This document shows positions 17,769-54,287 of a stretch of 64,000 nt of DNA, piece by piece. The DNA is from Gemmatimonadota bacterium. GTDB taxonomy: Bacteria; Gemmatimonadota; Gemmatimonadetes; Longimicrobiales; Gaopeijiaceae. The DNA lies in NCBI GenBank assembly GCA_039586555.1, contig JBDHKE010000013.1, forward strand, positions 3,781 to 67,780, written 5' to 3'. The position numbers and the translations under genes are program-made. How positions within the stretch are numbered: position 1 is the first letter of the stretch; each line of letters starts with the position of its first letter. The notes under the pieces are model-generated. The model had not been told where the DNA came from and did no database searches. It worked only from the letters and a program-made list of their open reading frames with translations.

Positions 17769-18575
17769 CTACCCGGAACGATTTGATATCCGGGTCCGCC
17801 CGTCCTCCACCTCGACCCGGAGGCCGTCCCAGCCAGCCAGGACCGTGCCCTCATACCCCGCTCCTCGAATGAGGTCCGGGACCCGTTCCGGGACCAGGTC
17901 CGGATACATGTGCGTGGCAATGGTCACGCCGGGGCGAGCGAGCCGCGCGAGCCGCGCCACTCCAGACGGTGTCAGATGATTGTCGTACCGAGGGGGATCC
18001 GGATGGCTGCACTCCACCAGGAGAACGTCCGGTCTGTCCAGAAACCTCGCCAGCTCGGGGTCCGGTCCGGTGTCCCCGGTGTATGCGATGACACCCCAAT
18101 CCGATTCCCAACGATACGCGACGGAGTGTTCGGTGTGGCGGGTGGGACAGGTTCGCAGGCGGAAGCGCTCCTCGGTGTCTCTCCATTCGCCTTCTCGAGC
18201 GACCTCGACAACCCTCACCGGAAACCCCGGATCCAGCACGCACCCAGCGAAGGCAGTGGACAGAGCATCCAGAAGCGTCTTCAGGCCCGGTGGGCCGATG
18301 ATCGTGAGCGGCGCCTCGCGGGGCGGATGCACGCCGTGCTTCAGAGCGAAAATGAACGGACCCAGATCACCCAGGTGATCGACGTGGAAATGGGTCAACC
18401 CGATGTGGCTCACTCCGTTCCAGCCGATTCCGCAGCGATCCATCCCGTGGAGTGCCCCCGAGCCGCAGTCCAGGAGCATCCGCACCCCTGGCGCCTCCAC
18501 GACATGACACGGCGAACGCCGGTCGTCGTCCGGAATCAGGGTCCCCGATCCCACCACCGTGACGCTCAAGGCCAA
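17769..18575 (-). CDS. MBL-fold metallo-hydrolase
   Basis: THFHVDHLGD metal-binding motif and a beta-lactamase-fold pattern. Overlaps the upstream subtilase-like gene by 10 nt. Confidence 0.72.
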   Translation of the reverse strand: MALSVTVVGSGTLIPDDDRRSPCHVVEAPGVRMLLDCGSGALHGMDRCGIGWNGVSHIGLTHFHVDHLGDLGPFIFALKHGVHPPREAPLTIIGPPGLKTLLDALSTAFAGCVLDPGFPVRVVEVAREGEWRDTEERFRLRTCPTRHTEHSVAYRWESDWGVIAYTGDTGPDPELARFLDRPDVLLVECSHPDPPRYDNHLTPSGVARLARLARPGVTIATHMYPDLVPERVPDLIRGAGYEGTVLAGWDGLRVEVEDGRTRISNRSG

Positions 18576-20932
18576 TAGACCATCCTCCGGATCTCCTCGA
18601 CATCCCTGGCGCGCAGGCGGAGCAGGTACACACCTCGGGGCACCTCCCTTCCCTGGTCATCCTTCCCATCCCAGTGAAGAAGTGTGCACTCATTGAGATC
18701 GACCTCGTCCCGTCCGTACAGTCCTGACTCCAGGGTGATCGGTGCACACCCGGACGCCGGGATGAGGCGCCGTATTCGCCTTCCCCGCAGATCGAACACC
18801 TCGAGCGTCACCTCCCCTGGTGTGGACAAGTCGAACCAGATGCGCGTGACACTCCTCCCCAGGTCTTCGCGAGGGAACGGGTTCGGGTAGTTCTGGAAGA
18901 GGATGGTCACGGGAGGGCGTGACCGGCTGGTGATGACGAAGGGACCCGCGCTGGTCACCGTGTCCGCTCCCCCCACGGGGGCCGTCGCGATGACGCGCCA
19001 CCGCAAGGGAAGGTTGAACGGCAGCGGATCGGGGATGCGAAACGAAGTCTCCCTGAGATCGGGGAAGGACTGGATCGGCTCCTGGTCCCTGTCCGAGAGC
19101 ACCTGTAGCTCGAACGCCAGCGGTCCCGCCGGAGCCGGAACGTCGAAGGCGTCCCATTCCAGAGTCGGGCGGGTTTCCTCGATGGTGACTCCTGCCGGGT
19201 CGTTGAGAACGAGGAGCGTCACCCACGACGGCACTTCGATGGGTCCCTGAGTCTCCGTCCGGCGACGGACACCCTGTGTCGTCTCCGCTTCCACCCTCCA
19301 GAAGAGCCGCCTCCGTGGCGGAAGCGGGGCAGCCGGACGCCTGGCGAAGGCACCCACCACGCTGTCTCGCACCACGACCTCGCTGAATGCGGAATCCTCG
19401 GCGGCCTGGAGTCGGAAGACCACGGGGAGCGCTCGCAGATCCACCGTCGGCGCGTCCCAGAAGAATCGCGGCACCAGGCTCGTCACCGTTCCCGCCGGAG
19501 TGACTTCCTGGAGGGGCAGCGCCCGAAGACCGTCGGGGAAGAAGATGGCGGAGGCCACGTCCGGGACCCCGGGACCGTTGGACGCCACGCCGTCGGGCCG
19601 GGATCGAGCGGAGGATATCAGGGCCTCCGCGATGGATAAGGGCCCACGTTCCGGATGGGCCTCCGCGAAGAGGGCGGCGATTCCGCCGATGAGTGCCCCG
19701 GCGAATTCCGTCCCGTCCACCGCCACCGTGTCATCCGGAGCCGCCACGCCAGCGGTCACCAGACCCACCCCTGGCGCCAGGATCTCCGGCTTCCGACGCC
19801 CGTCCGAGGTGGGCCCCCGAGCAGAGAACCCGGCCGGCCGGCCGGCTGCGTCGGATGCTCCAACGGAAATCACGCTGTCTCCATCCGCGGGGGCGACCAG
19901 GGTCTGCCCACCCGGACCCCCATTCCCCACCGGCACCACCACAAGGACGCCCCGGCGTGCCGCCTCGTCGGCAGCCAGGGTCGCCGGGATCTGGTCTCCG
20001 TCGAACCACTCCAACCCGTATGCGAAGTCGTCAAACTCGCGGAACCCCACCAGCGAGACGACCACTCGCACTCCCAGGCTTTCCAACCACTCCAAACCCG
20101 CCACCCAGAGATCCTCCTCCACACGCCGAGCCGAGGACACCTCTTCCACCCGGGCCAGGGCATACGAGGATCCAAAGGCTGGACCGCGGTCTCGTTCCGG
20201 AAGGTCTCCTGCAATGATCGCGAGAGCCGCCGTTCCCGGGCCGGCTTCTTCCAATGCCTCCCCCACCTCCGGCGTGACCGCGTCGTCCCCAGCGACGAAG
20301 TCCCGGGTCGCGAGAATCTCCACGTTGCGGAGCGCGCCGTGGTCCAGCCGCACGGCCGTCCCGAGGATTCCGACGCGAATGCCCGTTCCGGTGAGGCCCG
20401 CTTCGCGGGCGAACAGAACTCCAAGCTCGTCCAGCTCCTGGGAGAGCGACAGGCTTCCCGTCGTCTGTGTCCCGGACCTGGGGAGCCGCTGGCCGTCCAC
20501 AAACGTCGGGCGCGCGGGTGGCGCCGCGGCGGTACGCACCGGCCGCACCGCTTCGACACCGGGGAGATGGGCAATGACCTGCACAGTGGAAGAGTCCGCC
20601 TCGACGCTGAGGGCATTGAGCCACCGGCTTTCCGTCCGGATCCTGACCCCCAGACGCTGTAAGGCCGCGCGGGTCTCCTCGGCGCGAACGTGCGTGAGAT
20701 CGTGACGGGAGTGGTCTCGCACCCGGCTGTCTTGAGCAGGGAGTCCTCCCTCGACTCCGCCAGCGGCGTTCCGCCGTTCGGGAGTGAGGAAGACCCAATG
20801 CGCCAGGGAGGGCTCCGACTCGTTCGAGGCCGGGGGCGACACCCTAGGGGACCTCAAACCCGGCCCGGGCGATCCCCCCATGATCACGAGAATGAGGAAC
20901 AGACCCTGGAAGAGATTACGCCGCGGAGCCAC
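18566..20932 (-). CDS. Subtilisin-like (S8) pseudo-protease with T9SS-type C-terminal sorting domain
   Basis: S8 fold is recognisable but the catalytic positions are substituted. The Asp motif VAVIDTG reads VGILGTA, the His motif HGTHVAG reads PGTAALA, the Asn site is retained (PVGNGG) and the Ser motif GTSMA reads GTEFAG. The C-terminus ...WDGKDDQGREVPRGVYLLRLRA... resembles the Por/T9SS sorting tail. N-terminal signal peptide. Confidence 0.7.
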   Translation of the reverse strand: MAPRRNLFQGLFLILVIMGGSPGPGLRSPRVSPPASNESEPSLAHWVFLTPERRNAAGGVEGGLPAQDSRVRDHSRHDLTHVRAEETRAALQRLGVRIRTESRWLNALSVEADSSTVQVIAHLPGVEAVRPVRTAAAPPARPTFVDGQRLPRSGTQTTGSLSLSQELDELGVLFAREAGLTGTGIRVGILGTAVRLDHGALRNVEILATRDFVAGDDAVTPEVGEALEEAGPGTAALAIIAGDLPERDRGPAFGSSYALARVEEVSSARRVEEDLWVAGLEWLESLGVRVVVSLVGFREFDDFAYGLEWFDGDQIPATLAADEAARRGVLVVVPVGNGGPGGQTLVAPADGDSVISVGASDAAGRPAGFSARGPTSDGRRKPEILAPGVGLVTAGVAAPDDTVAVDGTEFAGALIGGIAALFAEAHPERGPLSIAEALISSARSRPDGVASNGPGVPDVASAIFFPDGLRALPLQEVTPAGTVTSLVPRFFWDAPTVDLRALPVVFRLQAAEDSAFSEVVVRDSVVGAFARRPAAPLPPRRRLFWRVEAETTQGVRRRTETQGPIEVPSWVTLLVLNDPAGVTIEETRPTLEWDAFDVPAPAGPLAFELQVLSDRDQEPIQSFPDLRETSFRIPDPLPFNLPLRWRVIATAPVGGADTVTSAGPFVITSRSRPPVTILFQNYPNPFPREDLGRSVTRIWFDLSTPGEVTLEVFDLRGRRIRRLIPASGCAPITLESGLYGRDEVDLNECTLLHWDGKDDQGREVPRGVYLLRLRARDVEEIRRMVYWP

Positions 20933-23900
20933 TGACTTGCAGAGCCTCTTCGAGGCGTACGCCTACGACCGTGCTGATTCCCGGCTCCTCCATGGTCACC
21001 CCGTAGATCCAGTCGGCGGCCTCGATGGTACGGGGGTTGTGAGTGATGACCACAAATTGCGTCTGACCCTTGAATTCCTCCAGAAGCCTTACGAAGCGGC
21101 CGATGTTCGACTCGTCGAGCGGTGCATCCACCTCGTCCAGAACGCAGAAAGGGCTGGGTTTCACGAGATAGATGCCAAACAGAAGGGCCAGGGCCGTGAG
21201 TGCACGTTCCCCGCCGGAAAGCAGGTCGATCCTCTGCGTCCGCTTCCCCCGTGGGGAGGCGTGGATCTCGATGGGGGATTCCAGGGGATCATCCGGGTCA
21301 CTCAGCCAGAGATTGGCCTCCCCCCCCTGGAAGAGCCGGAGGAAGGTTGATTGAAAATTCTCTTGGATCTTCTCGAAGGTCCCGAGGAAAAGGTCCGTGG
21401 CCGTCTGGTTGATCTCCCGTATCGCGGAGCGCAGATCGTCCCGGGCATCCACGAGGTCATCGCGCTGCTCACGGAGGAAGGCCAGCCGGTTGCTCTCCTC
21501 CTCGTGCTCCTCCACCGCCAACATGTTCACTGGGCCGATCCGCTCAAGGGCCGCAACGAGCTCCTGATACTCGGCCCGAAGACCTTCGGGCTCTCCCTCC
21601 GCTTCGTCCGCCTCGTCCAGTAGCACCTCCAGGGGTCGGCCCCACTCGGCCTCGAGGCGCTCACGTATCCTCTCGATTCTGCCCGTGAGCTCTTGCCGCT
21701 CGAGCTCGAGCCGGTGACGGCGGTTCGTCGCCTCCCGTTCCGCCGCTCGCGCGTCCCGGAGTTGACGCTCCGCTTCGAGAAGCCCTTCCGCCACGGATGC
21801 GAGTGCCTCCTCCCTGCTCGACAGTTGGCCCCTTGCCTCGTCCTGCTCGCCAAAAAGTCTCTCCATGGCGACTGCCCCGTCCGCCCTCATCTGCGTGGCA
21901 CGCTCCAGCTCCTGTCCGAGTTGCCCCCGTTCCCGGTTCAGTTCCTCGATCCGGCTCGTCTCCCCGGACTGAGCCCGCATTAGCTCGTCCTGGCGCTCCA
22001 CTACCCGCGCGAGCTCCCCTTCGAGACGCGCCAGGCGGATGGTGGACTGGGATTCTTCGCTCCGGGCGGTCTCCCACTCCTCGAGAGCCCTATCCAACCT
22101 TCCCCGAGTCGCTCCGTGCTCGTCAGCCAAGCTCCGTGCCTCGTCCAGCAGTCCTTCGCGCTCTCGCCGAGTCTCCTCAGCCCGCCGGAGTGCCCGGCGC
22201 CGGGCCGCGCGAGTGCCCTCCAGCTGGCGATCCAGGTCCTCCCGTTGCCTCTCAGTACGCACCTTCCGATCGTCCTGAGCTGCCACTTCCGCTTGTGCGC
22301 CCCGGTAGTCGTCCACGGCAACGCGATAGGCGTCCCAGGTCTTCTCGACGCTGGATTCGGCACTCCGGAACGCCTCTTCGGCCGAGGCGCGAGCCGACGA
22401 CGCGTCTTCCGCCGAGGATTGTGCTGCCCCGACAGCACCACGAAGCTTCCGGGTGCGCTCGCGGCGCTCGATCAATCCGCTCAAGCCGGAGGGCGCGCCG
22501 ATCCGCACGACGCCAAGACGATCGACGGAGGTCCCCGAAGGCGATATGCGGATGCCAGATCCAGGAGGGGAGGACAGCATATCGCCATCCACTAGCTCCA
22601 CCTCTGCAAGGAGTGCTCGGACCCATGGCGCCCCCTCCCCGGATGCCTCCAAGGCCTCGAACAAGCTCCCCACCCCTTCCGGTTTCGGCACCTCGTCCAG
22701 CGGAAGCAAGATCAGGCCACCGCCCTCCGACCACTCCTCCTCGAACCAGCGATTCAATCGGAGGACTGTTGCTCGATCCCGTACCACAAGCCCCTGCAGG
22801 AGAGGACCCAGAAAAGCCTCCACTGCTCTGGCTACGCCTTCGGGAGCCGAGACGAACTCCGACAGAAGGCCCACGATTCCGGAATCGTCGATCTGTTGCG
22901 CACTCCGCACGGCGGGCACCAACCCCTCCCCGTCTCTCTCCAGGGTTTCCAGAGCCGACAGCTGAGCGGCGAGTGCCGAGGCCCGGTCCAGGGCCTCCAC
23001 CTCACTGGCCCGCGCCCGTTCCAGATCCTTTCTTCGTCGAGCCAGCTCCGAGCGTGCTGCCTGGACGCGAGCCTCAGCCTCCGACGCGGCCCGAACCAGA
23101 GACTCCGCCCGGTCGGAGAAGAGATCCCCCTGGGATTCCATGTCCGAGAGCTGGTCGGCCGCTTCATGCCTGTCCCTCTCCAGACGCTCCAGGCGCCGGC
23201 CCAACTCCACGGCCTGAGCCTCGGACGCTTCCGCATCGCCCTGGGTCTGGGCGACCTTCCTGGCGATTTCCCTCTCTCGTCGCTCCACCTCGTCGACATC
23301 CTGCCGAGCATGGACGAGGCGCTCGCGCACCTCCCGTGCTGCCGCCTGACTCGCCTCCATCTCCTGGCTCAGCCGCTGGAAATCCGCCTCCAGCCCCTCC
23401 CGCCTGCCTGCCAGGCCGCCCTCCTCCTCCTTCAACCCCCCGATCCGCCGCTCCCGCTCCGAACGCTCTCCGTCGATCTGCTCGATTCTGCGACGAGCGT
23501 ACATGGCTCGCTCATCCGCCACGGCCAGATCCCGTTCCCACCGAGACAGCCGGGCGCGGACGTCTTCGAGCCTCTCTGCCGCAGAGCTCCGCGCCTTCTC
23601 GGCTTCCACCTGCTGCAGTCGAAGGGACTCGTACCGGGCTTCCGCGGTGCCAAGCTGGGCGGCGATGCCCTCTCCCACCACCTGGTCCTCGGCCAGCTTC
23701 TGCGCGACCTGAGCCAGGCGAGAGCCCAGGACGTCGAGCTCTCGCCGGACCACGGCCACTTCAACGGCCAGACGGCGAGCTCGGAGTCTATGGTATCGCT
23801 GAGCCTTGCCCTTCTGACGAGCCAGGGAGCGTACCTTGCTCTCCACCTCGCCGATGAGATCCTCGAGGCGCTGAAGATCTAGGTCGGCTCGTTCGAGCCT

Positions 23901-24437
23901 CCGCTGAGCGGACTTGCGGCGATCCTTGTACTTGCCGATTCCAGCAGCTTCCTCAAAAAGGGATCGCCGCTCCTCCGCGCGATCGGAGAGGATCGCGTCG
24001 ATCATGCGGCTCTCGATCACCGCGTAGGCGTTCGCGCCCAGACCCGTGTCGCGACAGAGATCATGGATGTCCCGGAGCCGGCAAGGGGCCCGATTGAGTG
24101 AGTAGTCACTGCCCCCGTCTCGATAGACGGTCCTCCCGATCTCCACCTCCTCGAAAGGGACCGGGAGCGTGGCGTCCTCGTTGGACACGACCATGGTTAC
24201 GGATCCCCGATTGACGGGACGGCGGTTCACGGTCCCCTGAAAGATGGCCTCCTCCATCTTCGCGCCACGGATCGCCGACGGCCGCTGCTCCCCGAGGACC
24301 CAGCGTATGGCGTCGCCGATGTTGGACTTACCGCAACCATTCGGACCCACGATGGACGTGATCCCCTCGTGGATCTGAATCTCAGTGCGATCCGCGAAGG
24401 ATTTGAAGCCGTGGAGTCGGATCGATCGGAGCTTCAC
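20916..24437 (-). CDS. smc: Chromosome segregation protein SMC
   Basis: N-terminal Walker A (VKLRSIRLHGFKSF...IVGPNGCGKSNIGDAIRWVLGEQ), long coiled-coils, hinge and a C-terminal signature/Walker B (LSGGERALTALALLFG..., CVLDEVDAPLDE). The start is the GTG at 24437, overlapping the upstream stop as GTGA. Confidence 0.9.
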   Translation of the reverse strand: MKLRSIRLHGFKSFADRTEIQIHEGITSIVGPNGCGKSNIGDAIRWVLGEQRPSAIRGAKMEEAIFQGTVNRRPVNRGSVTMVVSNEDATLPVPFEEVEIGRTVYRDGGSDYSLNRAPCRLRDIHDLCRDTGLGANAYAVIESRMIDAILSDRAEERRSLFEEAAGIGKYKDRRKSAQRRLERADLDLQRLEDLIGEVESKVRSLARQKGKAQRYHRLRARRLAVEVAVVRRELDVLGSRLAQVAQKLAEDQVVGEGIAAQLGTAEARYESLRLQQVEAEKARSSAAERLEDVRARLSRWERDLAVADERAMYARRRIEQIDGERSERERRIGGLKEEEGGLAGRREGLEADFQRLSQEMEASQAAAREVRERLVHARQDVDEVERREREIARKVAQTQGDAEASEAQAVELGRRLERLERDRHEAADQLSDMESQGDLFSDRAESLVRAASEAEARVQAARSELARRRKDLERARASEVEALDRASALAAQLSALETLERDGEGLVPAVRSAQQIDDSGIVGLLSEFVSAPEGVARAVEAFLGPLLQGLVVRDRATVLRLNRWFEEEWSEGGGLILLPLDEVPKPEGVGSLFEALEASGEGAPWVRALLAEVELVDGDMLSSPPGSGIRISPSGTSVDRLGVVRIGAPSGLSGLIERRERTRKLRGAVGAAQSSAEDASSARASAEEAFRSAESSVEKTWDAYRVAVDDYRGAQAEVAAQDDRKVRTERQREDLDRQLEGTRAARRRALRRAEETRREREGLLDEARSLADEHGATRGRLDRALEEWETARSEESQSTIRLARLEGELARVVERQDELMRAQSGETSRIEELNRERGQLGQELERATQMRADGAVAMERLFGEQDEARGQLSSREEALASVAEGLLEAERQLRDARAAEREATNRRHRLELERQELTGRIERIRERLEAEWGRPLEVLLDEADEAEGEPEGLRAEYQELVAALERIGPVNMLAVEEHEEESNRLAFLREQRDDLVDARDDLRSAIREINQTATDLFLGTFEKIQENFQSTFLRLFQGGEANLWLSDPDDPLESPIEIHASPRGKRTQRIDLLSGGERALTALALLFGIYLVKPSPFCVLDEVDAPLDESNIGRFVRLLEEFKGQTQFVVITHNPRTIEAADWIYGVTMEEPGISTVVGVRLEEALQVSGSAA

Positions 24438-25255
24438 TGAGTCAGGCCGGGAATCGGGATGTATCCGGTGACACCACCGACGAGCAAGACAACCATGAGG
24501 ATGATCAGGAGGATAATGGCGATCCAGCGACCCCGGGATCGTCTGGGTGTCACTGCGGGCACTGCTTCCTCGCCCGAACCCACCGCTGTGGCCGGAGCCT
24601 CGTCGCCGACGACGTCCTCGGCCCATTCAGGCCCCAGAACCCCGCCGAGCCGAGCGCTCGCCGCCCCAAGGATCTCTTGCGGCGACTCTTGCGGCCCCGC
24701 GAGGAGGATCACGCTGGAGGCGTGCTGGAGCGCCTTCGAACCCGCAGAGCGTTCCGAGGGAAGGTAGACGACCAGAGCCGCCTTCTCCGCCGCGAACCCC
24801 GCCGCCACTGCTTCCCAGCGCTCGTGATGGAGTACCTGATCCGGATCCGCCACGGGCGTACCCGCTGGAGCGAAGTAGAAGGGTCCGTCCGGTGCCCGGT
24901 GGGCGATGCGGGCCATGGACGCTCCATAGAGAAACCCGTCGGAGATTCCTTCTCCGTTTTCGACACCGACGATTCGGTGGAGGATGGGGTTCTCCAGATC
25001 CAGGTCCACAAGCACGACCCGAGCACCTTCTTCGGCCCACCTTCGAGCCAGGGCTGTGGCCGAGCGTGCAGCCCACTCCTCCTGCCGGGCAACACCGGTG
25101 GCCACGATAGCCACCACCCGGCCTTCCTCACTTCCAAGAACCCTGCTCGAGTGAAGGGTCCCTGGAATGGACTCCGCCTGCGGGTCGAATGGAACCCAGT
25201 CGCCGGTTTCAGCACTCATGCTCTTTGGCCCAGATGTGATGCGATGCTCCGCCAC
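24434..25255 (-). CDS. ParA/MinD-like protein with degenerate Walker A and C-terminal transmembrane anchor
   Basis: The core (VVAIVATGVARQEEW...ARVVLVDLDLENPILHRIVGVENGEGISD...PDGPFYFAPAGTP...) aligns to the MinD/ParA deviant-Walker-A fold, but the GKGGVGKT P-loop is replaced by TGVARQEE. The C-terminus WIAIILLIILMVVLLVGGV is a transmembrane helix. Translationally coupled to smc. Confidence 0.55.
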   Translation of the reverse strand: MAEHRITSGPKSMSAETGDWVPFDPQAESIPGTLHSSRVLGSEEGRVVAIVATGVARQEEWAARSATALARRWAEEGARVVLVDLDLENPILHRIVGVENGEGISDGFLYGASMARIAHRAPDGPFYFAPAGTPVADPDQVLHHERWEAVAAGFAAEKAALVVYLPSERSAGSKALQHASSVILLAGPQESPQEILGAASARLGGVLGPEWAEDVVGDEAPATAVGSGEEAVPAVTPRRSRGRWIAIILLIILMVVLLVGGVTGYIPIPGLTQ

Positions 25256-25412
25256 CCATGACCCGATCGGAACGGGGCGTTCCAGGAAGGTCGCCCGAAG
25301 TTAACCCGCCTCTCCCGGGCACGGCAATCAAGGGTGTACGCACCTCCTATCATCGTCCGATTTCATCAGACAGATCCGGTACACCGAGCGTCACGAGCCT
25401 CGTCTGGATCCG

Positions 25413-25790
25413 CTACTCCTCCAGACTCAAGCTCGGAGCATCGCCCCAGAGAACTTCCAACTGATAGAAAGCGCGGGCGGTATGGTGGAACACGTGCACG
25501 ACGAAGTCAATGTAATCGATCAGCACCCAGTATCCGGCCTCCAGACCCTCCACGTGGTCGGGGCGCACGTCGCTCTTCTTCAGCTCCTCGATCACATGTT
25601 CCGCGATCGCCCTCACCTGTATGTCCGAGTTCCCCGTGCCCAGAACGAAGAAGTCGGTTGCGGAGGAGATTCCCCGAAGGTCCATCGCCATGACTGCCTG
25701 AGCCTTCCGTTCCAGGGTCAGGTTAGCCGCCAGCAGCACCTCGCTCGGGAGATTGTGCGGGCCAAGCTGAGGGCTCGGGGGCGACGGCAT
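25413..25790 (-). CDS. rsfS: Ribosome silencing factor RsfS (Iojap-like)
   Basis: DFFVLGTGNSDIQVRAIAEHV...DYIDFVVHVFHHTARAFYQLEVLWGDAP matches RsfS. Confidence 0.82.
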   Translation of the reverse strand: MPSPPSPQLGPHNLPSEVLLAANLTLERKAQAVMAMDLRGISSATDFFVLGTGNSDIQVRAIAEHVIEELKKSDVRPDHVEGLEAGYWVLIDYIDFVVHVFHHTARAFYQLEVLWGDAPSLSLEE

Positions 25791-25804
25791 GACCGGAGCC
25801 AGGC

Positions 25805-26263
25805 TCAGTTCCCCTCCGCCCGCTCGACGCGGACCTCGATCTCCACCGTTACTTCAGAGTGGAGGCGGATCGGAACCTTGTAGACCCCTATGGCCTTGAG
25901 AGGCTCTTCCATGGCCACCTGTCTCCTATCCAGGGCGAAGTCCAACCCCGTCTCGTTGGCCCGGTCGGCCACGTCTGCGTTGGTGACCGATCCGAACAGC
26001 CTTCCTTCCTCCCCAGCTCGGGCCTTGAACGAGAGCACGGTCCCCTCCAGCTGTGCGGATCGCCGTCGCGCTTCGAGGTAGTCCCGCTTCGCCCGATCCT
26101 CGGCTCGTGCCTGCTCCTCCTCGAGGCGGCGGATGTTGGCGGCCGAAGCTTCGTATGCGAGGTCTTGCGGCAGGAGGTAGTTCCGGGCGTATCCCGGCTT
26201 CACGTTGACCACGTCGCCGGGCTCTCCCAAGCGATCAACGGTCTTTTTCAGGATCACCTTCAT
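25805..26263 (-). CDS. rplI: 50S ribosomal protein L9
   Basis: MKVILKKTVDRLGEPGDVVNVKPGYARNYLLPQ... is the L9 N-domain. The start is at the internal Met of the track ORF. Confidence 0.88.
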   Translation of the reverse strand: MKVILKKTVDRLGEPGDVVNVKPGYARNYLLPQDLAYEASAANIRRLEEEQARAEDRAKRDYLEARRRSAQLEGTVLSFKARAGEEGRLFGSVTNADVADRANETGLDFALDRRQVAMEEPLKAIGVYKVPIRLHSEVTVEIEVRVERAEGN

Positions 26264-26285
26264 GCATTGCTCCTCGATAGAACAG

Positions 26286-27212
26286 TCACCCAAGAATCGC
26301 ACGGGCTCGCTCGCGCAGGTCCAGCCATGTGTCTCCGAGGCCGATGATCAAGGCTCCGGCAACGACCACCGGGGCCAGAAAGAGGAGCCCCAGGAGCACC
26401 AGCACGAAGCCCAGGAGGGACACCCCCCCAGCGAGGAAGGTCACGACTGCGGCACCCCTCACGGCGTACAAGGTGCCCACGAACACCACAGCGTTGGTCC
26501 CCAGTCGGTTCCAGCCTTCGCCCAGGCGAAACACCGCAGCCGCGAGGCCGAGAATCAGAATCCAGATCAGCTGGTCGTTGAAGTGGAAGTCCCTCAACGG
26601 CCCGAGTGCTCGATCGCTGCCGTGCACGAAACGCACATAGAGCCACCACGCGACACCCAGCCCGGCCACTGAGGAAAGACCAAGCAAAGCGGGGAAGATC
26701 ATACCCTGTATCTCCGCGGCTCTGAGCACGGCACCGACCACAGCCGGCGAAAGTGCCGCATCGCCCTGCAGGATCCTCATGGCCTCCAGCGCGGCCCCGA
26801 CCCCGGTTCGTATCCGGTCGTTCATGACCCAGTCCGCCACGGTCCAACTCTCGGGTCGCACGAGGAAGAAGAGGGCACTGGCCGCAAAGGCGCCCCCTAC
26901 CGCTCCAAGCGCTCTCGGAACGAATCCCCACCCTGGCCAGCGCAGCGTCAGCGCAACGAAGCAGCCGCCCACCAGCAAGGCCCAACCTCTCTCCAGGTAC
27001 CAGGATCCGGTCTTGGGGGACCCGACCATCACCAGGGCCAACAACAGCGCCGCCGCCACGAGCCCGAACCCCCTCCGGTCGGGCATCAGCACCGTCATCA
27101 GGGCAAGCGGAAGGATGACGAGGACAAGAGGCTGACCGGAAAGGACGATGGCCGCTCCCAGGAGCGCAGCCGCACGAAGCCACCGTCGCTCCCCCGGATG
27201 GGGCTTATCCAT
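26286..27212 (-). CDS. DUF2232 (YybS-like) polytopic membrane protein
   Basis: 308 aa with about 8 hydrophobic helices, located between rpsF/rpsR and rplI as yybS is in Firmicutes. Confidence 0.55.
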   Translation of the reverse strand: MDKPHPGERRWLRAAALLGAAIVLSGQPLVLVILPLALMTVLMPDRRGFGLVAAALLLALVMVGSPKTGSWYLERGWALLVGGCFVALTLRWPGWGFVPRALGAVGGAFAASALFFLVRPESWTVADWVMNDRIRTGVGAALEAMRILQGDAALSPAVVGAVLRAAEIQGMIFPALLGLSSVAGLGVAWWLYVRFVHGSDRALGPLRDFHFNDQLIWILILGLAAAVFRLGEGWNRLGTNAVVFVGTLYAVRGAAVVTFLAGGVSLLGFVLVLLGLLFLAPVVVAGALIIGLGDTWLDLRERARAILG

Positions 27213-27217
27213 CCAGA

Positions 27218-27853
27218 CTAGATCCCGTGATCGCGCACGTAGGGAAGAAGGGAAAGGTAGCGAGCCCGCTTGATTGCCGTGGTGAGATGACGCTGGAAGC
27301 CCGCGGAGACCTTGGTGGTTCGTCGCGGCAGGATCTTGCCCTGCTCCGTGATGAACCTGGAGAGAGTCGCCACGTCCTTGTAGTTGAGAAGAAGGATCCG
27401 CGGTCCGTCCACGCGGCGACGACGACCGCGGCCGCCGCTGAACTCGGGCGGGCTGGAATCTTCATCCTCTTCTTCCTCGTCCTCCAGCGGATCCTCTTCG
27501 GGCTCTTCGTCGCTCGCGGCAGTCGCCCGACTCTCGGCCAGTATGGACATCCCGGACGTAGGTTCCCCTTCGTTCACAACGATCAGATACCGCCTCACCT
27601 GATCGTCCAGCCTGAGAAGTCGTTCGAAGGCGGGAAGGCTCTCCGGATCGGTCCGGAACTGGGCCACCACGTAGTAACCGCTCTTGAGGCCGCCGATGGG
27701 GTAGGCCAGCTGGCGCGCTCCCCAGTGATCGACGGCAATGATCTCGCCCCCGTCTTTCTCCACCAGAGGGGCGTGGAGCCGTTCGAGCTTCTTTTCGACC
27801 GCCCCCTCGTCCAGGGCCGGATCGAAGATATAGACGACCTCGTAATCGCGCAT
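27218..27853 (-). CDS. rpsF/rpsR: Ribosomal protein S6-S18 fusion (rpsF-rpsR in one reading frame)
   Basis: Residues 1-~110 are S6 ([12 protein letters not shown]...[13 protein letters not shown]...YYVVAQF) with an acidic tail ([20 protein letters not shown]). This continues in frame into a complete S18 ([66 protein letters not shown]). There is no stop codon between them. Confidence 0.78.
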
Positions 27854-51177: not shown

Positions 51178-51467
51178 CCGGTACTCCCGGCTACCCGCTC
51201 CAGGATCCAACTCAAGCGGTTTTCCACGCGCTCGCCGTCCGCAGCCGCCTCGCAGGCGTAGGTGATCAGCGCATCAGCAGCAAGAAGGTGGAAGGCGGCT
51301 TCTCGGTTCCGTCCGGGCAGTCGGACGGCTCGCTGAAGCGCCGCGACCCCCGCAGAAGTCAGCGCCGGGACGAGATCTGGGCTCCCTTCATCGGTGAAGG
51401 AGATCCACCGCCGCAGAACGTCCGGTACGGTAGGAAGTCGCTTGTCAAGCCACTCCCGCGTACTCAC
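51174..51467 (-). CDS. Hypothetical small protein (97 aa) translationally coupled between alaS and the CpsB-like gene
   Basis: Its ATG overlaps the alaS stop (ATGA) and its stop overlaps the downstream start. No recognisable family. Confidence 0.3.
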   Translation of the reverse strand: MSTREWLDKRLPTVPDVLRRWISFTDEGSPDLVPALTSAGVAALQRAVRLPGRNREAAFHLLAADALITYACEAAADGERVENRLSWILERVAGSTG

Positions 51468-54078
51468 GCCCGGGCCCCTCCTTCGGCCAGCGTTCGGACA
51501 ATTTCCTCCCCGTGGGCCAGAGCCGCGTCCAGGCGTTCCGGATCACCGACGCCCGCCTGGGCCATGTGTGCCCGACCTCCCCCTCGGCCGCCTACCAGCG
51601 CAGCGACCTCACGCACCACCGTGTCCGCCCGAATGCCCCGCTGAACCAGGTCGTTCGTGACGAACGCGAAAAGCGTGTGTTTGCCCCCCGGCAGCTCGGC
51701 CCCCACCACTGCCACCCCACTGGGCACCGAGGCGAGGAATCCGTCACCATAGGTCCGCACGTCCTCGGCATCTCGAGCTCGCATTCGCACCGCCCGGTAC
51801 TGGGCTCGCCGGCCGCCGCCCACTTCCACGGAGGCTTCCATTACGATGCTCTCGCCGCCTCCGGTTCCTCTGCGTAGCTCCCCGAGAATCGACTCCAACT
51901 CTTCCTGATGGGAGAGAAGCTGCTCGACCCGTCTCCGCACGTTCTCCACCGGTGTCTTGAGGATCCCCGCCAGCTCCGCCAGCTGGTGTTCCAGCGCCTC
52001 GAACCGGCGGAACGCGGTGGGACCGGTCAACCCCTCGATTCGGCGCACACCAGACGCGACGCTTCCTTCGTGGGCAATCTTGAAGAGGCCGATCTCTCCC
52101 GTGTGACGGACGTGAGTTCCCCCGCATAGCTCCGCACTCACACCAGGGATCTGAACCACCCGCACCACATCCCCGTACTTCTCTCCGAAAAGCGCCATAG
52201 CGCCCATGGAAACGGCTTCATCATAGGGGAGGTAGTCGTAATGCACCGGATGGTCCCGCCAGATCGCCTCATTCACCAGTTTCTCCAACTGACGCCGCTC
52301 GTCCGTCGTGACCGAAGCCGAATGAGCAAAGTCGAACCGCAGCCGATCCGGAGCTACCAGGGATCCCCTTTGCTCCACGTGACTGCCAAGAACCGACCTC
52401 AGGGCCGCATGCAGGAGGTGCGTTGCCGTGTGGTTACGCTCCGTGTCGTGCCGGTCACCATCGCGCACACGTGCGTGCACCTCCAGTGGTCCCCCGTCCG
52501 TGACGGCAGGGAGCTGTCCCGTCACCGCACCCAAGATCGCGACCCGGTCCCCGATTCCTCGTACCTCGTTTACCTGGAGTGACCAACCGTCACCGACGAC
52601 TTCCCCCTGATCCGATACCTGTCCTCCACTCTCCAGATAGAAGGGGTTCGCTTCCAGCTGCAGAGCTACCTGGCCATTCCGCTCACGAATCGCCAGCACC
52701 TGCGTCTCCACGTCTGTAGTCGTGTAGCCGACGAACTCCTGATCTCCCTCGGGACTGAGCTCCACCCAGCCTTCGGCAAGCTCTTCACCGGTCGCGGCCA
52801 GGGCAGCGGCCCGGTCGGCGCGACTCCTCGCCCGCTGGCTTTCAAGCTCCGCCTCGAACCCCTCTACGTCCACCGAGTAGCCCCGCTCCTCGGCCATGAG
52901 CTGGGTCAGGTCAAGAGGGAAGCCAAAGGTGTCGTAGAGCCGGAACGCTTCCCTTCCGGAAATCACACGCTCCGTTTCGTCCCCTGCCCGGGTGGTGATC
53001 TCCTCGAATCGGCCAAGACCGCCCTCGACGGTTCCGAGGAAGCGCTCCTCCTCATTCCGGGTTGTTCGGAGAATATGATCCGACCGCTCCGCGAGCTCGG
53101 GATAGACATCCTCCATGGCCCCGATCACCTCCTCCACCACAGTGACCAGCGTCGGGGCGCGGCGTCCTAGAAGCCAGGCGTGGCGGACGGCCCGGCGGAG
53201 AATGCGACGCAGGACATAGCCACGCCCTTCATTGGAGGGATACACACCATCCGCGAGCAGGAACGCCACGGCGCGAGCATGATCGGCCAGGACCCGGAAG
53301 CTCACCCCCAGAGGCCCGTCGGACTCGTACGAGCGCCCCACTACCTCACCCACACGATGGCCGTCATCCGTTCGAGTCCGAGCCCCGTATCGATGGACGG
53401 CGCGGGAAGCGGGTTAAGCGTCCCGTCCTCGTCTCGGTCGAACTGCATGAAGACCAGATTCCAGAGCTCGATGAACTCCCCCCGGTCGCCGGCCTCCACA
53501 AACGCCTCGAGGGGAAGATCCTGGCCCCTCTCCGTCTTCGGCCGAGCGTCGAAGTGCACCTCCGAGCATGGACCACACGGTCCTGTCTCCGCCATCTGCC
53601 AGAAGTTGTCCTTGTCGCCAAGGCGATAGATGCGGTTGGCCGAGGCACCCGTGACCTCCTCCCAGATTCGGGCTGCCTCGTCGTCGGTGTGATGCACTGT
53701 GAAGTAGAGTCGGTCCGGATCCAACCCCATTTCCCGGGTCAGAAACTCCCAAGCGTACTCGATCGCCGCCTGCTTGAAGTAGTCCCCGAAAGAGAAGTTT
53801 CCCAGCATCTCGAAGAAGGTGTGGTGTCTGGCCGTGCGTCCCACCTCCTCCAGGTCGTTGTGCTTCCCGCCAGCACGAACGCATTTCTGGGCTGTCACCG
53901 CCCTGTCGAACGCGACCTCCTCCTGGCCCAGAAAGACCGATTTGAACTGGACCATCCCTGCGTTCGTGAACAGAAGGGTGGGATCGTCGCCCGGCACGAG
54001 CGGCGAGCTCGGCCGAACGGCGTGGCCCCGTTCACGAAAGTACTCGAGGAACCGCCGCCGGATCTCCGCTGCCTTCAT
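51464..54078 (-). pseudogene. alaS: Alanine--tRNA ligase, apparently disrupted by a frameshift/internal deletion near 53345-53355
   Basis: The N-terminal part is in one frame (53341..54078: [14 protein letters not shown]...[10 protein letters not shown]...[16 protein letters not shown]-stop). The remainder is in another frame (51464..53353: ...SFRVLADH...GYVLRRILRRAVRH...HSATHLLHAAL...GGTHV...). About 15-20 residues conserved in E. coli and Thermus AlaS between GLER(I/M)AAV and RV(I/L)ADH are missing at the junction. Confidence 0.6.
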
Positions 54079-54287
54079 CGGTCTATTCGTCCCGATCCAG
54101 ACTCTCAGAGCGCTGGAAATGCTGTCGTAGCCTGCAAGTATAACATGATCGCGTCGGTACCGCCGGAGGGCCGCACGGTTCCAGAAATGATCGTTCTGGC
54201 CAACGAAAACGGGGCTCGGCCGCGCCGAACCCCGCCCTCCCTCGGACCCACCCGCGGTTTGGCCCCCCAACCTCGGGGAGATTTCTT

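Follow-up and report, generated by a model that had tools for sequence, protein, structure and literature searches.

Pseudokinases of the bacterial tyrosine kinase (BY-kinase) type have been defined as proteins that keep the BY-kinase fold without its Walker motifs and its tyrosine tail, and two of them, EcpK of Myxococcus xanthus and HfsB of Caulobacter crescentus, have been suggested to work as scaffolds by contacting other proteins (PMC12004946). The BY-kinase CpsD of Streptococcus pneumoniae is found at the division site; it binds ParB and affects chromosome segregation (PMC4574921). Here we describe a gene, called X below, that lies directly upstream of smc in a 64,000-nucleotide stretch of a Gemmatimonadota genome (family Gaopeijiaceae; assembly GCA_039586555.1, contig JBDHKE010000013.1, positions 3,781 to 67,780), referred to as the window. 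An earlier reading of the same sequence, the preliminary description, had taken its product for a degenerate, membrane-anchored ATPase of the ParA/MinD type. Our analysis indicates that X is very probably a membrane-anchored BY-pseudokinase scaffold.

X resembles EcpK and HfsB, as these have been described in print, in its BY-kinase fold, its loss of motifs and its proposed scaffolding function. However, EcpK and HfsB, which are encoded in polysaccharide clusters, partner a type 2 polysaccharide co-polymerase (PCP-2) as soluble or peripheral proteins, whereas X has a C-terminal transmembrane (TM) helix of its own, a SPOR domain in orthologues, a context of ribosomal-protein genes and smc, and a stop codon that overlaps the smc start. 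With CpsD it shares the character of a BY-kinase-fold protein that would act at the membrane or division site and be tied to the chromosome segregation machinery. CpsD, in contrast, is an active autokinase encoded in a capsule operon, anchored through a separate protein, CpsC, and linked to ParB in a phosphorylation-dependent manner, whereas the domain of X appears dead and its genetic link is to smc. A literature search returned no description of the X family or of a dead BY-kinase domain combined with a TM helix and SPOR, in keeping with the earlier view that the arrangement was undescribed. From its sequence and predicted structure, X appears to be a BY pseudokinase whose architecture and genomic partner are both new.

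A BY-kinase-like domain without catalytic motifs

The reading frame of X is open without interruption from 24434 to 25255 on the minus strand, the strand that carries every feature located below, and encodes 273 aa when counted from a GTG at 25255. This is the extent that the preliminary description had given the gene; the frame is indeed open throughout, but the start is better placed at the ATG at 25219. This choice follows from the homologues, all of which begin at the equivalent methionine with M-x-x-E-x-P-x-W-x-P-F-D-P (alignment A1), and from the public gene call P0001 (261 aa, 'hypothetical protein'), which starts there and is identical to our translation. The coding sequence of X is therefore best placed at 24434..25219 (261 aa), with a product that begins MSAETGDWVPFDP. 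Its 3' end reads TCAC on the plus strand (24434-24437) and hence GTGA on the coding strand, so that the TGA stop of X (24434-24436) overlaps the GTG start of smc (24435-24437) by 4 nt; the overlap itself had been reported at the outset. The smc gene (20916..24437, coupled to X) encodes 1173 aa with matches to SMC_N (4e-65) and SMC_hinge (1.2e-8), and its product, read from this GTG, has the N-terminus VKLRSIRLHGFKSF / VKLRSIRLHGFKSFADRTEI. A scan of positions 20500-26500 found no promoters or terminators.

An exhaustive hidden Markov model (HMM) search over 1.84 billion representatives, with clusters taken at 50% identity, placed 369 clusters in the X family at E≤1e-30 and 781 at E≤1e-10; a word-indexed search with the profile of 78 members found 11 proteins only. 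Cluster members are annotated only as 'hypothetical protein'. Two sets of members were used for the comparisons that follow, one of 78 representative members and one of 31 genome-derived members. Neither Pfam nor NCBIfam has a model that covers the N-terminal domain of the family. Pfam returned only noise for the X protein (CbiA, E=0.16) and no match to this domain in any of the 78 members, and the NCBIfam matches, all below threshold, were to BY-kinase models: EpsG (1.8e-6), the XrtA-associated tyrosine autokinase (1.7e-5) and Wzc (7e-4) for X itself, and BY-kinase families in 42 of the 78 members.

More sensitive comparisons gave the same assignment. A phmmer search of PDB sequences with X retrieved BY-kinases exclusively (Wzc at 1.7e-4, BceF, CapB and Etk), and the 78-member profile likewise retrieved only Wzc, BceF and CapB (best 8.8e-6). 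An AlphaFold2 (AF2) model built from the 78-member alignment, with a mean predicted local distance difference test score (pLDDT) of 89.4 and a predicted template modelling score of 0.77, shows a domain of alternating beta and alpha elements (aa 1-198), then a linker modelled at low confidence, and a helix at the end (aa 229-251). When this model was compared with the PDB by Foldseek, the top 50 matches were all BY-kinase domains (E from 3e-11 to 1e-8), led by CapA2B2 at 2.8e-11 and followed by Wzc, Etk, VpsO and BceF. By profile and by model, the domain is a member of the MinD/ParA (SIMIBI) superfamily, specifically of the BY-kinase type, and has the fold of a BY-kinase catalytic domain. It occupies 24626..25219, is predicted to be cytoplasmic, and is acidic and catalytically degenerate. 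The kleisin and winged-helix kite folds of ScpA and ScpB are not seen in X, whose fold is of the SIMIBI P-loop type.

The MinD/ParA kinship proposed in the preliminary description is thus borne out at the level of the superfamily, while ParA and MinD proper were rejected as the closest relatives. They are not among the nearest structural neighbours of X, their structural match is clearly weaker than that of the BY-kinases, and X lacks their deviant Walker A motif, KGGxxGK[ST]. X also differs from MinD and ParA in having a true TM helix instead of an amphipathic one and an acidic surface not suited to DNA binding. The sequence landmarks quoted in the preliminary description, RVVAIVATGVARQEEW, RVVLVDLDLENP and YFAPAGTP, all occur in the X translation. 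In the HMM alignment to Wzc, NGEGvsD..L.G of X pairs with NVNGLSE..I.G, and AGT..DP..L...RW pairs with RGQ..NP..L...RF, which makes NGEG..D and AGT..DP motifs of BY-kinases. X has in common with Wzc, Etk, CapB, VpsO and BceF, its best structural and sequence matches, the motifs N..G(L/V)S(D/E)..L.G and G....(N/D)P...L...R between Walker A' and Walker B. It departs from them in lacking the catalytic motifs, the tyrosine cluster and the polysaccharide context, and from Wzc in the order of its parts, since the kinase-like domain of X precedes the TM helix whereas the TM and periplasmic domain of Wzc precedes the kinase.

The catalytic site of this domain has been lost at each of its defining positions. 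In the register of the Wzc alignment, the Walker A position falls at aa 40-52, ATGVARQEEWAAR (25064..25102), where GK[ST] of Wzc is replaced by W49-A50-A51, with Trp49 at the glycine position and two alanines for Lys and Ser/Thr; the sequence TGVARQEEWAAR does not contain G-x4-G-K-[ST]. Trp49 is invariant in all 78 members, where the motif has become Trp-Ala-x, and GK[ST] occurs in the first 120 aa of none; the loss of the P-loop lysine motif noted earlier is thereby upheld. The Walker A' position, VVLVDLDLE (aa 68-76; 24992..25018), aligns with LLIDCDMRKG of Wzc and departs from hhhhDxDxR: D72 is invariant, the second Asp is found in 20 of 78 members (X of the window among them) and the Arg is replaced. 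At the Walker B position, LVVYLPSE (aa 149-156; 24752..24775), column counts over the 78 members give Leu in 42 and Val in 26 at residue 153, in place of the Asp of hhhhDxxP, and Pro at residue 154 in 65. Finally, there is no Tyr at aa 190-228 of X, and hence no tyrosine cluster that could serve as a phospho-acceptor tail. Because GK[ST] of Walker A, the Asp of Walker B and the tyrosine tail are all lost, X is predicted to be incapable of canonical ATP binding or hydrolysis. X thus combines the BY-kinase fold with the absence of Walker motifs and tyrosine tail by which BY pseudokinases are defined, and is very probably one of them.

The N-terminal segment of the domain is also conserved. W-x-P-F-D-P (aa 8-13; 25181..25198) is predicted to form a short strand packed on the domain; alignment A1 shows no variation at W8, D12 or P13, and residues 8-10 form a strand in the AF2 models both of X and of its 496-aa homologue P0009. 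The segment could imitate, from within the same chain, the activator peptide of BY-kinases.

Loss of the catalytic motifs has not been accompanied by signs of decay. Nine residues (W49, D72, E90, G91, D94, G99, S101, G120 and W135) never vary among the 78 members, and conservation reaches 90% or more at a number of other positions. Full-length pairwise ratios of nonsynonymous to synonymous substitution (dN/dS) were 0.16-0.44 for orthologue pairs from related loci and 0.33-0.55 for two comparisons with the window copy, both of which are saturated. Judged from these sequence comparisons, the X family is under purifying selection and X is a real gene. The acidity of the domain is equally general: it holds in all 78 members, with a median isoelectric point (pI) of 4.66 and a median net charge of -11, and the domain of the window copy has a pI of 4.96. 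This acidity argues against DNA binding of the ParA kind and makes it unlikely that X tethers the nucleoid directly, as the preliminary description had suggested it might.

Membrane anchor, linker and SPOR region

The domain is followed by an acidic linker rich in Pro and Ala (aa 199-222; 24554..24625; pI 4.05), predicted to be disordered (pLDDT 59-64) and free of any tyrosine cluster. Its length varies among orthologues from about 25 to about 250 aa. Next come a basic patch, RRSRGR, and the hydrophobic helix IAIILLIILMVVLLVGGVT, which together span aa 223-251 (24467..24553). The mean Kyte-Doolittle value of 3.18 over aa 233-251 and the AF2 helix at aa 229-251 agree with the single C-terminal membrane anchor reported at the outset. 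The protein ends in a predicted extracytoplasmic tail of 10 residues, GYIPIPGLTQ (24437..24466). The N-terminus is predicted to be cytoplasmic, because the SPOR domain of orthologues sits C-terminal of the TM helix and because basic residues precede that helix.

Nearly all of the 31 genome-derived members follow the same plan of domain, variable acidic Pro-rich linker, basic patch with TM helix, and [IV]PG[IL]. The last of these motifs stands directly after the helix in most of the 31 members, appears as 'IPG' in the family consensus and reads IPIPGL in the window; on the predicted periplasmic side, in equivalent position to that in loci L001-L028, it is kept even in the 10-residue tail of X. 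About half of the members extend for some 200 residues beyond it, and SPOR (PF05036) was detected in 31 of 78 representative and 11 of 31 genome-derived members. P0009, which is encoded on a complete chromosome from a metagenome-assembled genome (MAG; OY970395), illustrates the long form. Its AF2 model has a domain at 1-195, a disordered stretch at 200-260, a TM helix at 263-283 and two beta-alpha-beta-beta-alpha-beta modules (324-389 and 399-478; pLDDT ~95), which we read as tandem SPOR-like domains. Other members, whose chain runs on for no more than about 30 residues beyond the TM helix, form a short-tail group made up of the window copy and those of L003, L006, L010, L013, L014, L016, L019, L020, L027 and L028. 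The tail of the window copy is the shortest seen, lacks the SPOR region of orthologues and has no match to PF05036.

SPOR domains bind denuded septal glycan and bring proteins to the division site. In many of its orthologues X has the layout of FtsN, DamX and DedD, bitopic proteins in which the N-terminus is cytoplasmic and a single TM helix leads, through a disordered linker in the periplasm, to SPOR at the C-terminus. These three proteins have short or unstructured cytoplasmic parts and are unlinked to smc, whereas X carries a 200-residue domain of P-loop fold, and they differ from the window copy in possessing SPOR.

The junction with smc and the possible role of X

When one genome of each GTDB species was scanned by pattern, 28 confirmed loci were obtained, all of them in Gemmatimonadota MAGs, including ones labelled Gemmatimonadales and Longimicrobiales; contigs L029 and L030, which encode P0002 and P0004, respectively, were added to these. 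The gene order (ychF)-rpsF/rpsR-DUF2232-rplI-rsfS-X-smc was found in 25 of the 25 loci with enough sequence, often with a gene of the metallo-beta-lactamase (MBL) fold next. In 23 of 25 genome loci the X and smc genes overlap by 4 nt (ATGA); one of the other two junctions is abutting (TAG followed by ATG) and one overlaps by 1 nt (TAATG). The 4-nt overlap recurs in L029, whose P0002 is the closest relative of X (49-51% identity) and whose downstream gene product is 65% identical to the SMC of the window, and in L030, where the downstream gene is truncated by the contig end. The linkage to smc claimed from the window alone therefore holds in its relatives: the stop of X overlaps or abuts the next start at all 27 readable related junctions, at 25 of them by 4 nt, and the next gene was confirmed as smc at 26 of the 27. 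The downstream products in related loci are 55-74% identical to that of the window smc. The overlap is kept in copies whose C-terminus lies anywhere from 10 to about 230 residues past the TM helix. Because it persists across such different tail lengths, the X/smc junction itself appears to be maintained. Overlapping stop and start codons permit translational coupling.

These features suggest how X might act. The dead BY-kinase domain would serve as a protein-binding scaffold beneath the membrane, where the flexible acidic linker and the single TM helix would hold it, a role proposed because canonical ATP use is lost. In SPOR-bearing orthologues the periplasmic SPOR domain would bind septal peptidoglycan; the window copy would have lost this part and kept the membrane anchor and [IV]PG[IL]. 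Translated from the same messenger RNA as smc through overlapping stop and start codons, X would be produced together with SMC. Its partner could be SMC itself, ScpAB or ParB, through which it would link SMC-dependent chromosome organization to the envelope or division site. Scaffolding, septal targeting and the physical link to SMC are steps that we infer. Our leading though tentative reading, which we place just under an even chance, is that X is a membrane or division-site adaptor made with SMC that couples chromosome segregation to the envelope or septum. That X functions in the SMC pathway is possible, if somewhat short of an even chance. The more specific proposal that it binds the SMC complex directly, as a dedicated membrane or division-site receptor and condensin-to-envelope tether derived from a dead tyrosine-kinase domain, we regard as rather unlikely.

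Several observations weigh against a role with SMC. Within the phylum, synteny extends over all of ychF-rpsF/R-DUF2232-rplI-rsfS-X-smc; adjacency taken alone is therefore weak evidence and could partly mirror a general conservation of gene order. The overlap is also cheap to keep, since the second codon of smc (AAG or AGG, for Lys or Arg) supplies a ready-made TGA after ATG or GTG. The window copy has no SPOR domain, and septal targeting cannot be assumed for it. A paralogue unlinked to smc (L015:8001-11162, 1053 aa) is present in the same MAG as locus L004. Its degenerate N-terminal domain, the same as that of X, is joined to a receiver of the response-regulator type at the C-terminus (PF00072, 2.1e-18), so that the module is reused for signalling at a site away from smc. 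Because this paralogue is unlinked and fused to a receiver, the X-type domain is not intrinsically tied to SMC.

Among the rival explanations, the one we take most seriously, while still considering it doubtful, is that X is a divisome or peptidoglycan protein of the SPOR type, like FtsN, DamX and DedD, which communicates with division proteins, not with SMC, and is co-expressed with smc as one cell-cycle gene with another. The succession of cytoplasmic domain, TM helix, periplasmic linker and SPOR is that of these proteins, SPOR occurs in 31 of 78 members and tandem SPOR-like modules are predicted in P0009, and contact with SMC is something we infer only. Such a role accounts less readily for the short-tail group, which has no SPOR domain but in which the pseudokinase domain, the TM helix and the smc overlap all persist, or for the overlap or abutment of stop and start at 27 of 27 junctions. 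Alternatively, X could be a pseudokinase of the EcpK/HfsB type that takes part in capsule or exopolysaccharide export and stands next to smc by accident. The fold and the loss of Walker A, A' and B and of the tyrosine tail are as described for EcpK, and the best sub-threshold families are the EpsG and XrtA-associated tyrosine autokinases. We nevertheless judge this improbable: there are no genes for PCPs (PCP-2 included), Wza, Wzx/Wzy or glycosyltransferases among the neighbours of X within about 10 kb, the housekeeping context is kept in 25 genomes, and a TM helix of its own C-terminal to the domain, together with SPOR, sets the family apart from EcpK and HfsB.

Two further explanations concern the domain itself. 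An active NTPase or kinase with a non-canonical nucleotide site would be compatible with the invariance of D72 and of several BY-kinase structural motifs, but it is very improbable given that GK[ST] is absent from 78 of 78 members, the Walker B Asp is lost, Trp49 stands at the P-loop position and no tyrosine cluster is present. The least credible explanation, to which we assign next to no probability, is that X is a remnant of a decaying partition ATPase, as the preliminary description had offered as one option, or a chance ORF in GC-rich DNA. High-GC DNA does give many long shadow ORFs, and the catalytic motifs are lost; however, the dN/dS values of 0.16-0.55, the nine invariant residues, the existence of at least 369 clusters and the confident fold already refute a pseudogene, a chance frame and a decayed ATPase alike.

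The interest of the adaptor reading lies in what it would connect. Beyond a few model organisms, little is understood of how condensin activity and the division septum are coordinated. We know of no membrane-anchored partner of bacterial SMC, and a literature search for one found none. A large protein family that has no curated model, and whose stop codon is joined to the smc start across a phylum, is a testable candidate for a link between SMC and the envelope. If X is in fact a dedicated receptor for the SMC complex, Gemmatimonadota would coordinate chromosome compaction or segregation with septum closure through a component undescribed in the literature we searched, with septal targeting supplied by SPOR in SPOR-bearing lineages. 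The idea of the BY-pseudokinase scaffold, until now proposed for EcpK and HfsB in polysaccharide export, would extend to a housekeeping, cell-cycle context. Should the link to smc amount to co-expression only, the X family would still be new as an envelope protein of the SPOR type, and unusual in its cytoplasmic module.

Neighbouring genes and other features of the window

In four loci a second, tandem paralogue of X lies between rsfS and the smc-coupled copy (L007:1865-2575, L009:6331-7842, L012:6342-7853 and L021:6431-7642). Three of these are labelled as Longimicrobiales MAGs and L009 is labelled Gemmatimonota only; SPOR was detected in at least one tandem paralogue, L009a (2.5e-9).

The window carries rsfS, rplI, DUF2232, rpsF/R and ychF on the upstream side of X. 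The rsfS gene, for the ribosomal silencing factor (25413..25790; 1.9e-28), lies between rplI and X. An ORF of about 123-136 aa occupies its place in related loci and was confirmed as RsfS in L029 and L030. On the downstream side are genes for an S8 protease, an MBL-fold protein, DAHP synthase, a MarR regulator, an ABC system of the MacB/FtsX type and a LolA-like protein. The S8 subtilase gene (18566..20932, 788 aa) shares 17 nt with the 3' end of smc, which it separates from the MBL-fold gene. This protease gene looks like a lineage-specific insertion, because in related loci with a detected MBL gene that gene follows smc within about 10-80 nt.

The ribosomal protein genes rpsF and rpsR are fused in the window into one ORF of 211 aa (27218..27853), with S6 at aa 4-92, S18 at aa 156-203 and a strongly acidic linker between the two. 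A tblastn search with the fused S6-S18 protein covered residues 1 to about 210 in 26 Gemmatimonadota loci, and an independent gene call in L030 is a single 206-aa product with both domains; from these matches the fusion looks phylum-wide.

An Rfam scan of the window found one tRNA and nothing else. The alaS gene (51464..54270) appears to be divided between two ORFs, which lie in different frames and share 13 nt. By their domain matches, the ORF at 53341..54270 corresponds to positions 1-234 of tRNA-synt_2c and that at 51464..53353 to positions 256-531 followed by tRNA_SAD and DHHA1. Either a frameshift or an error in the assembly could lie behind this division, or alaS may truly be split.

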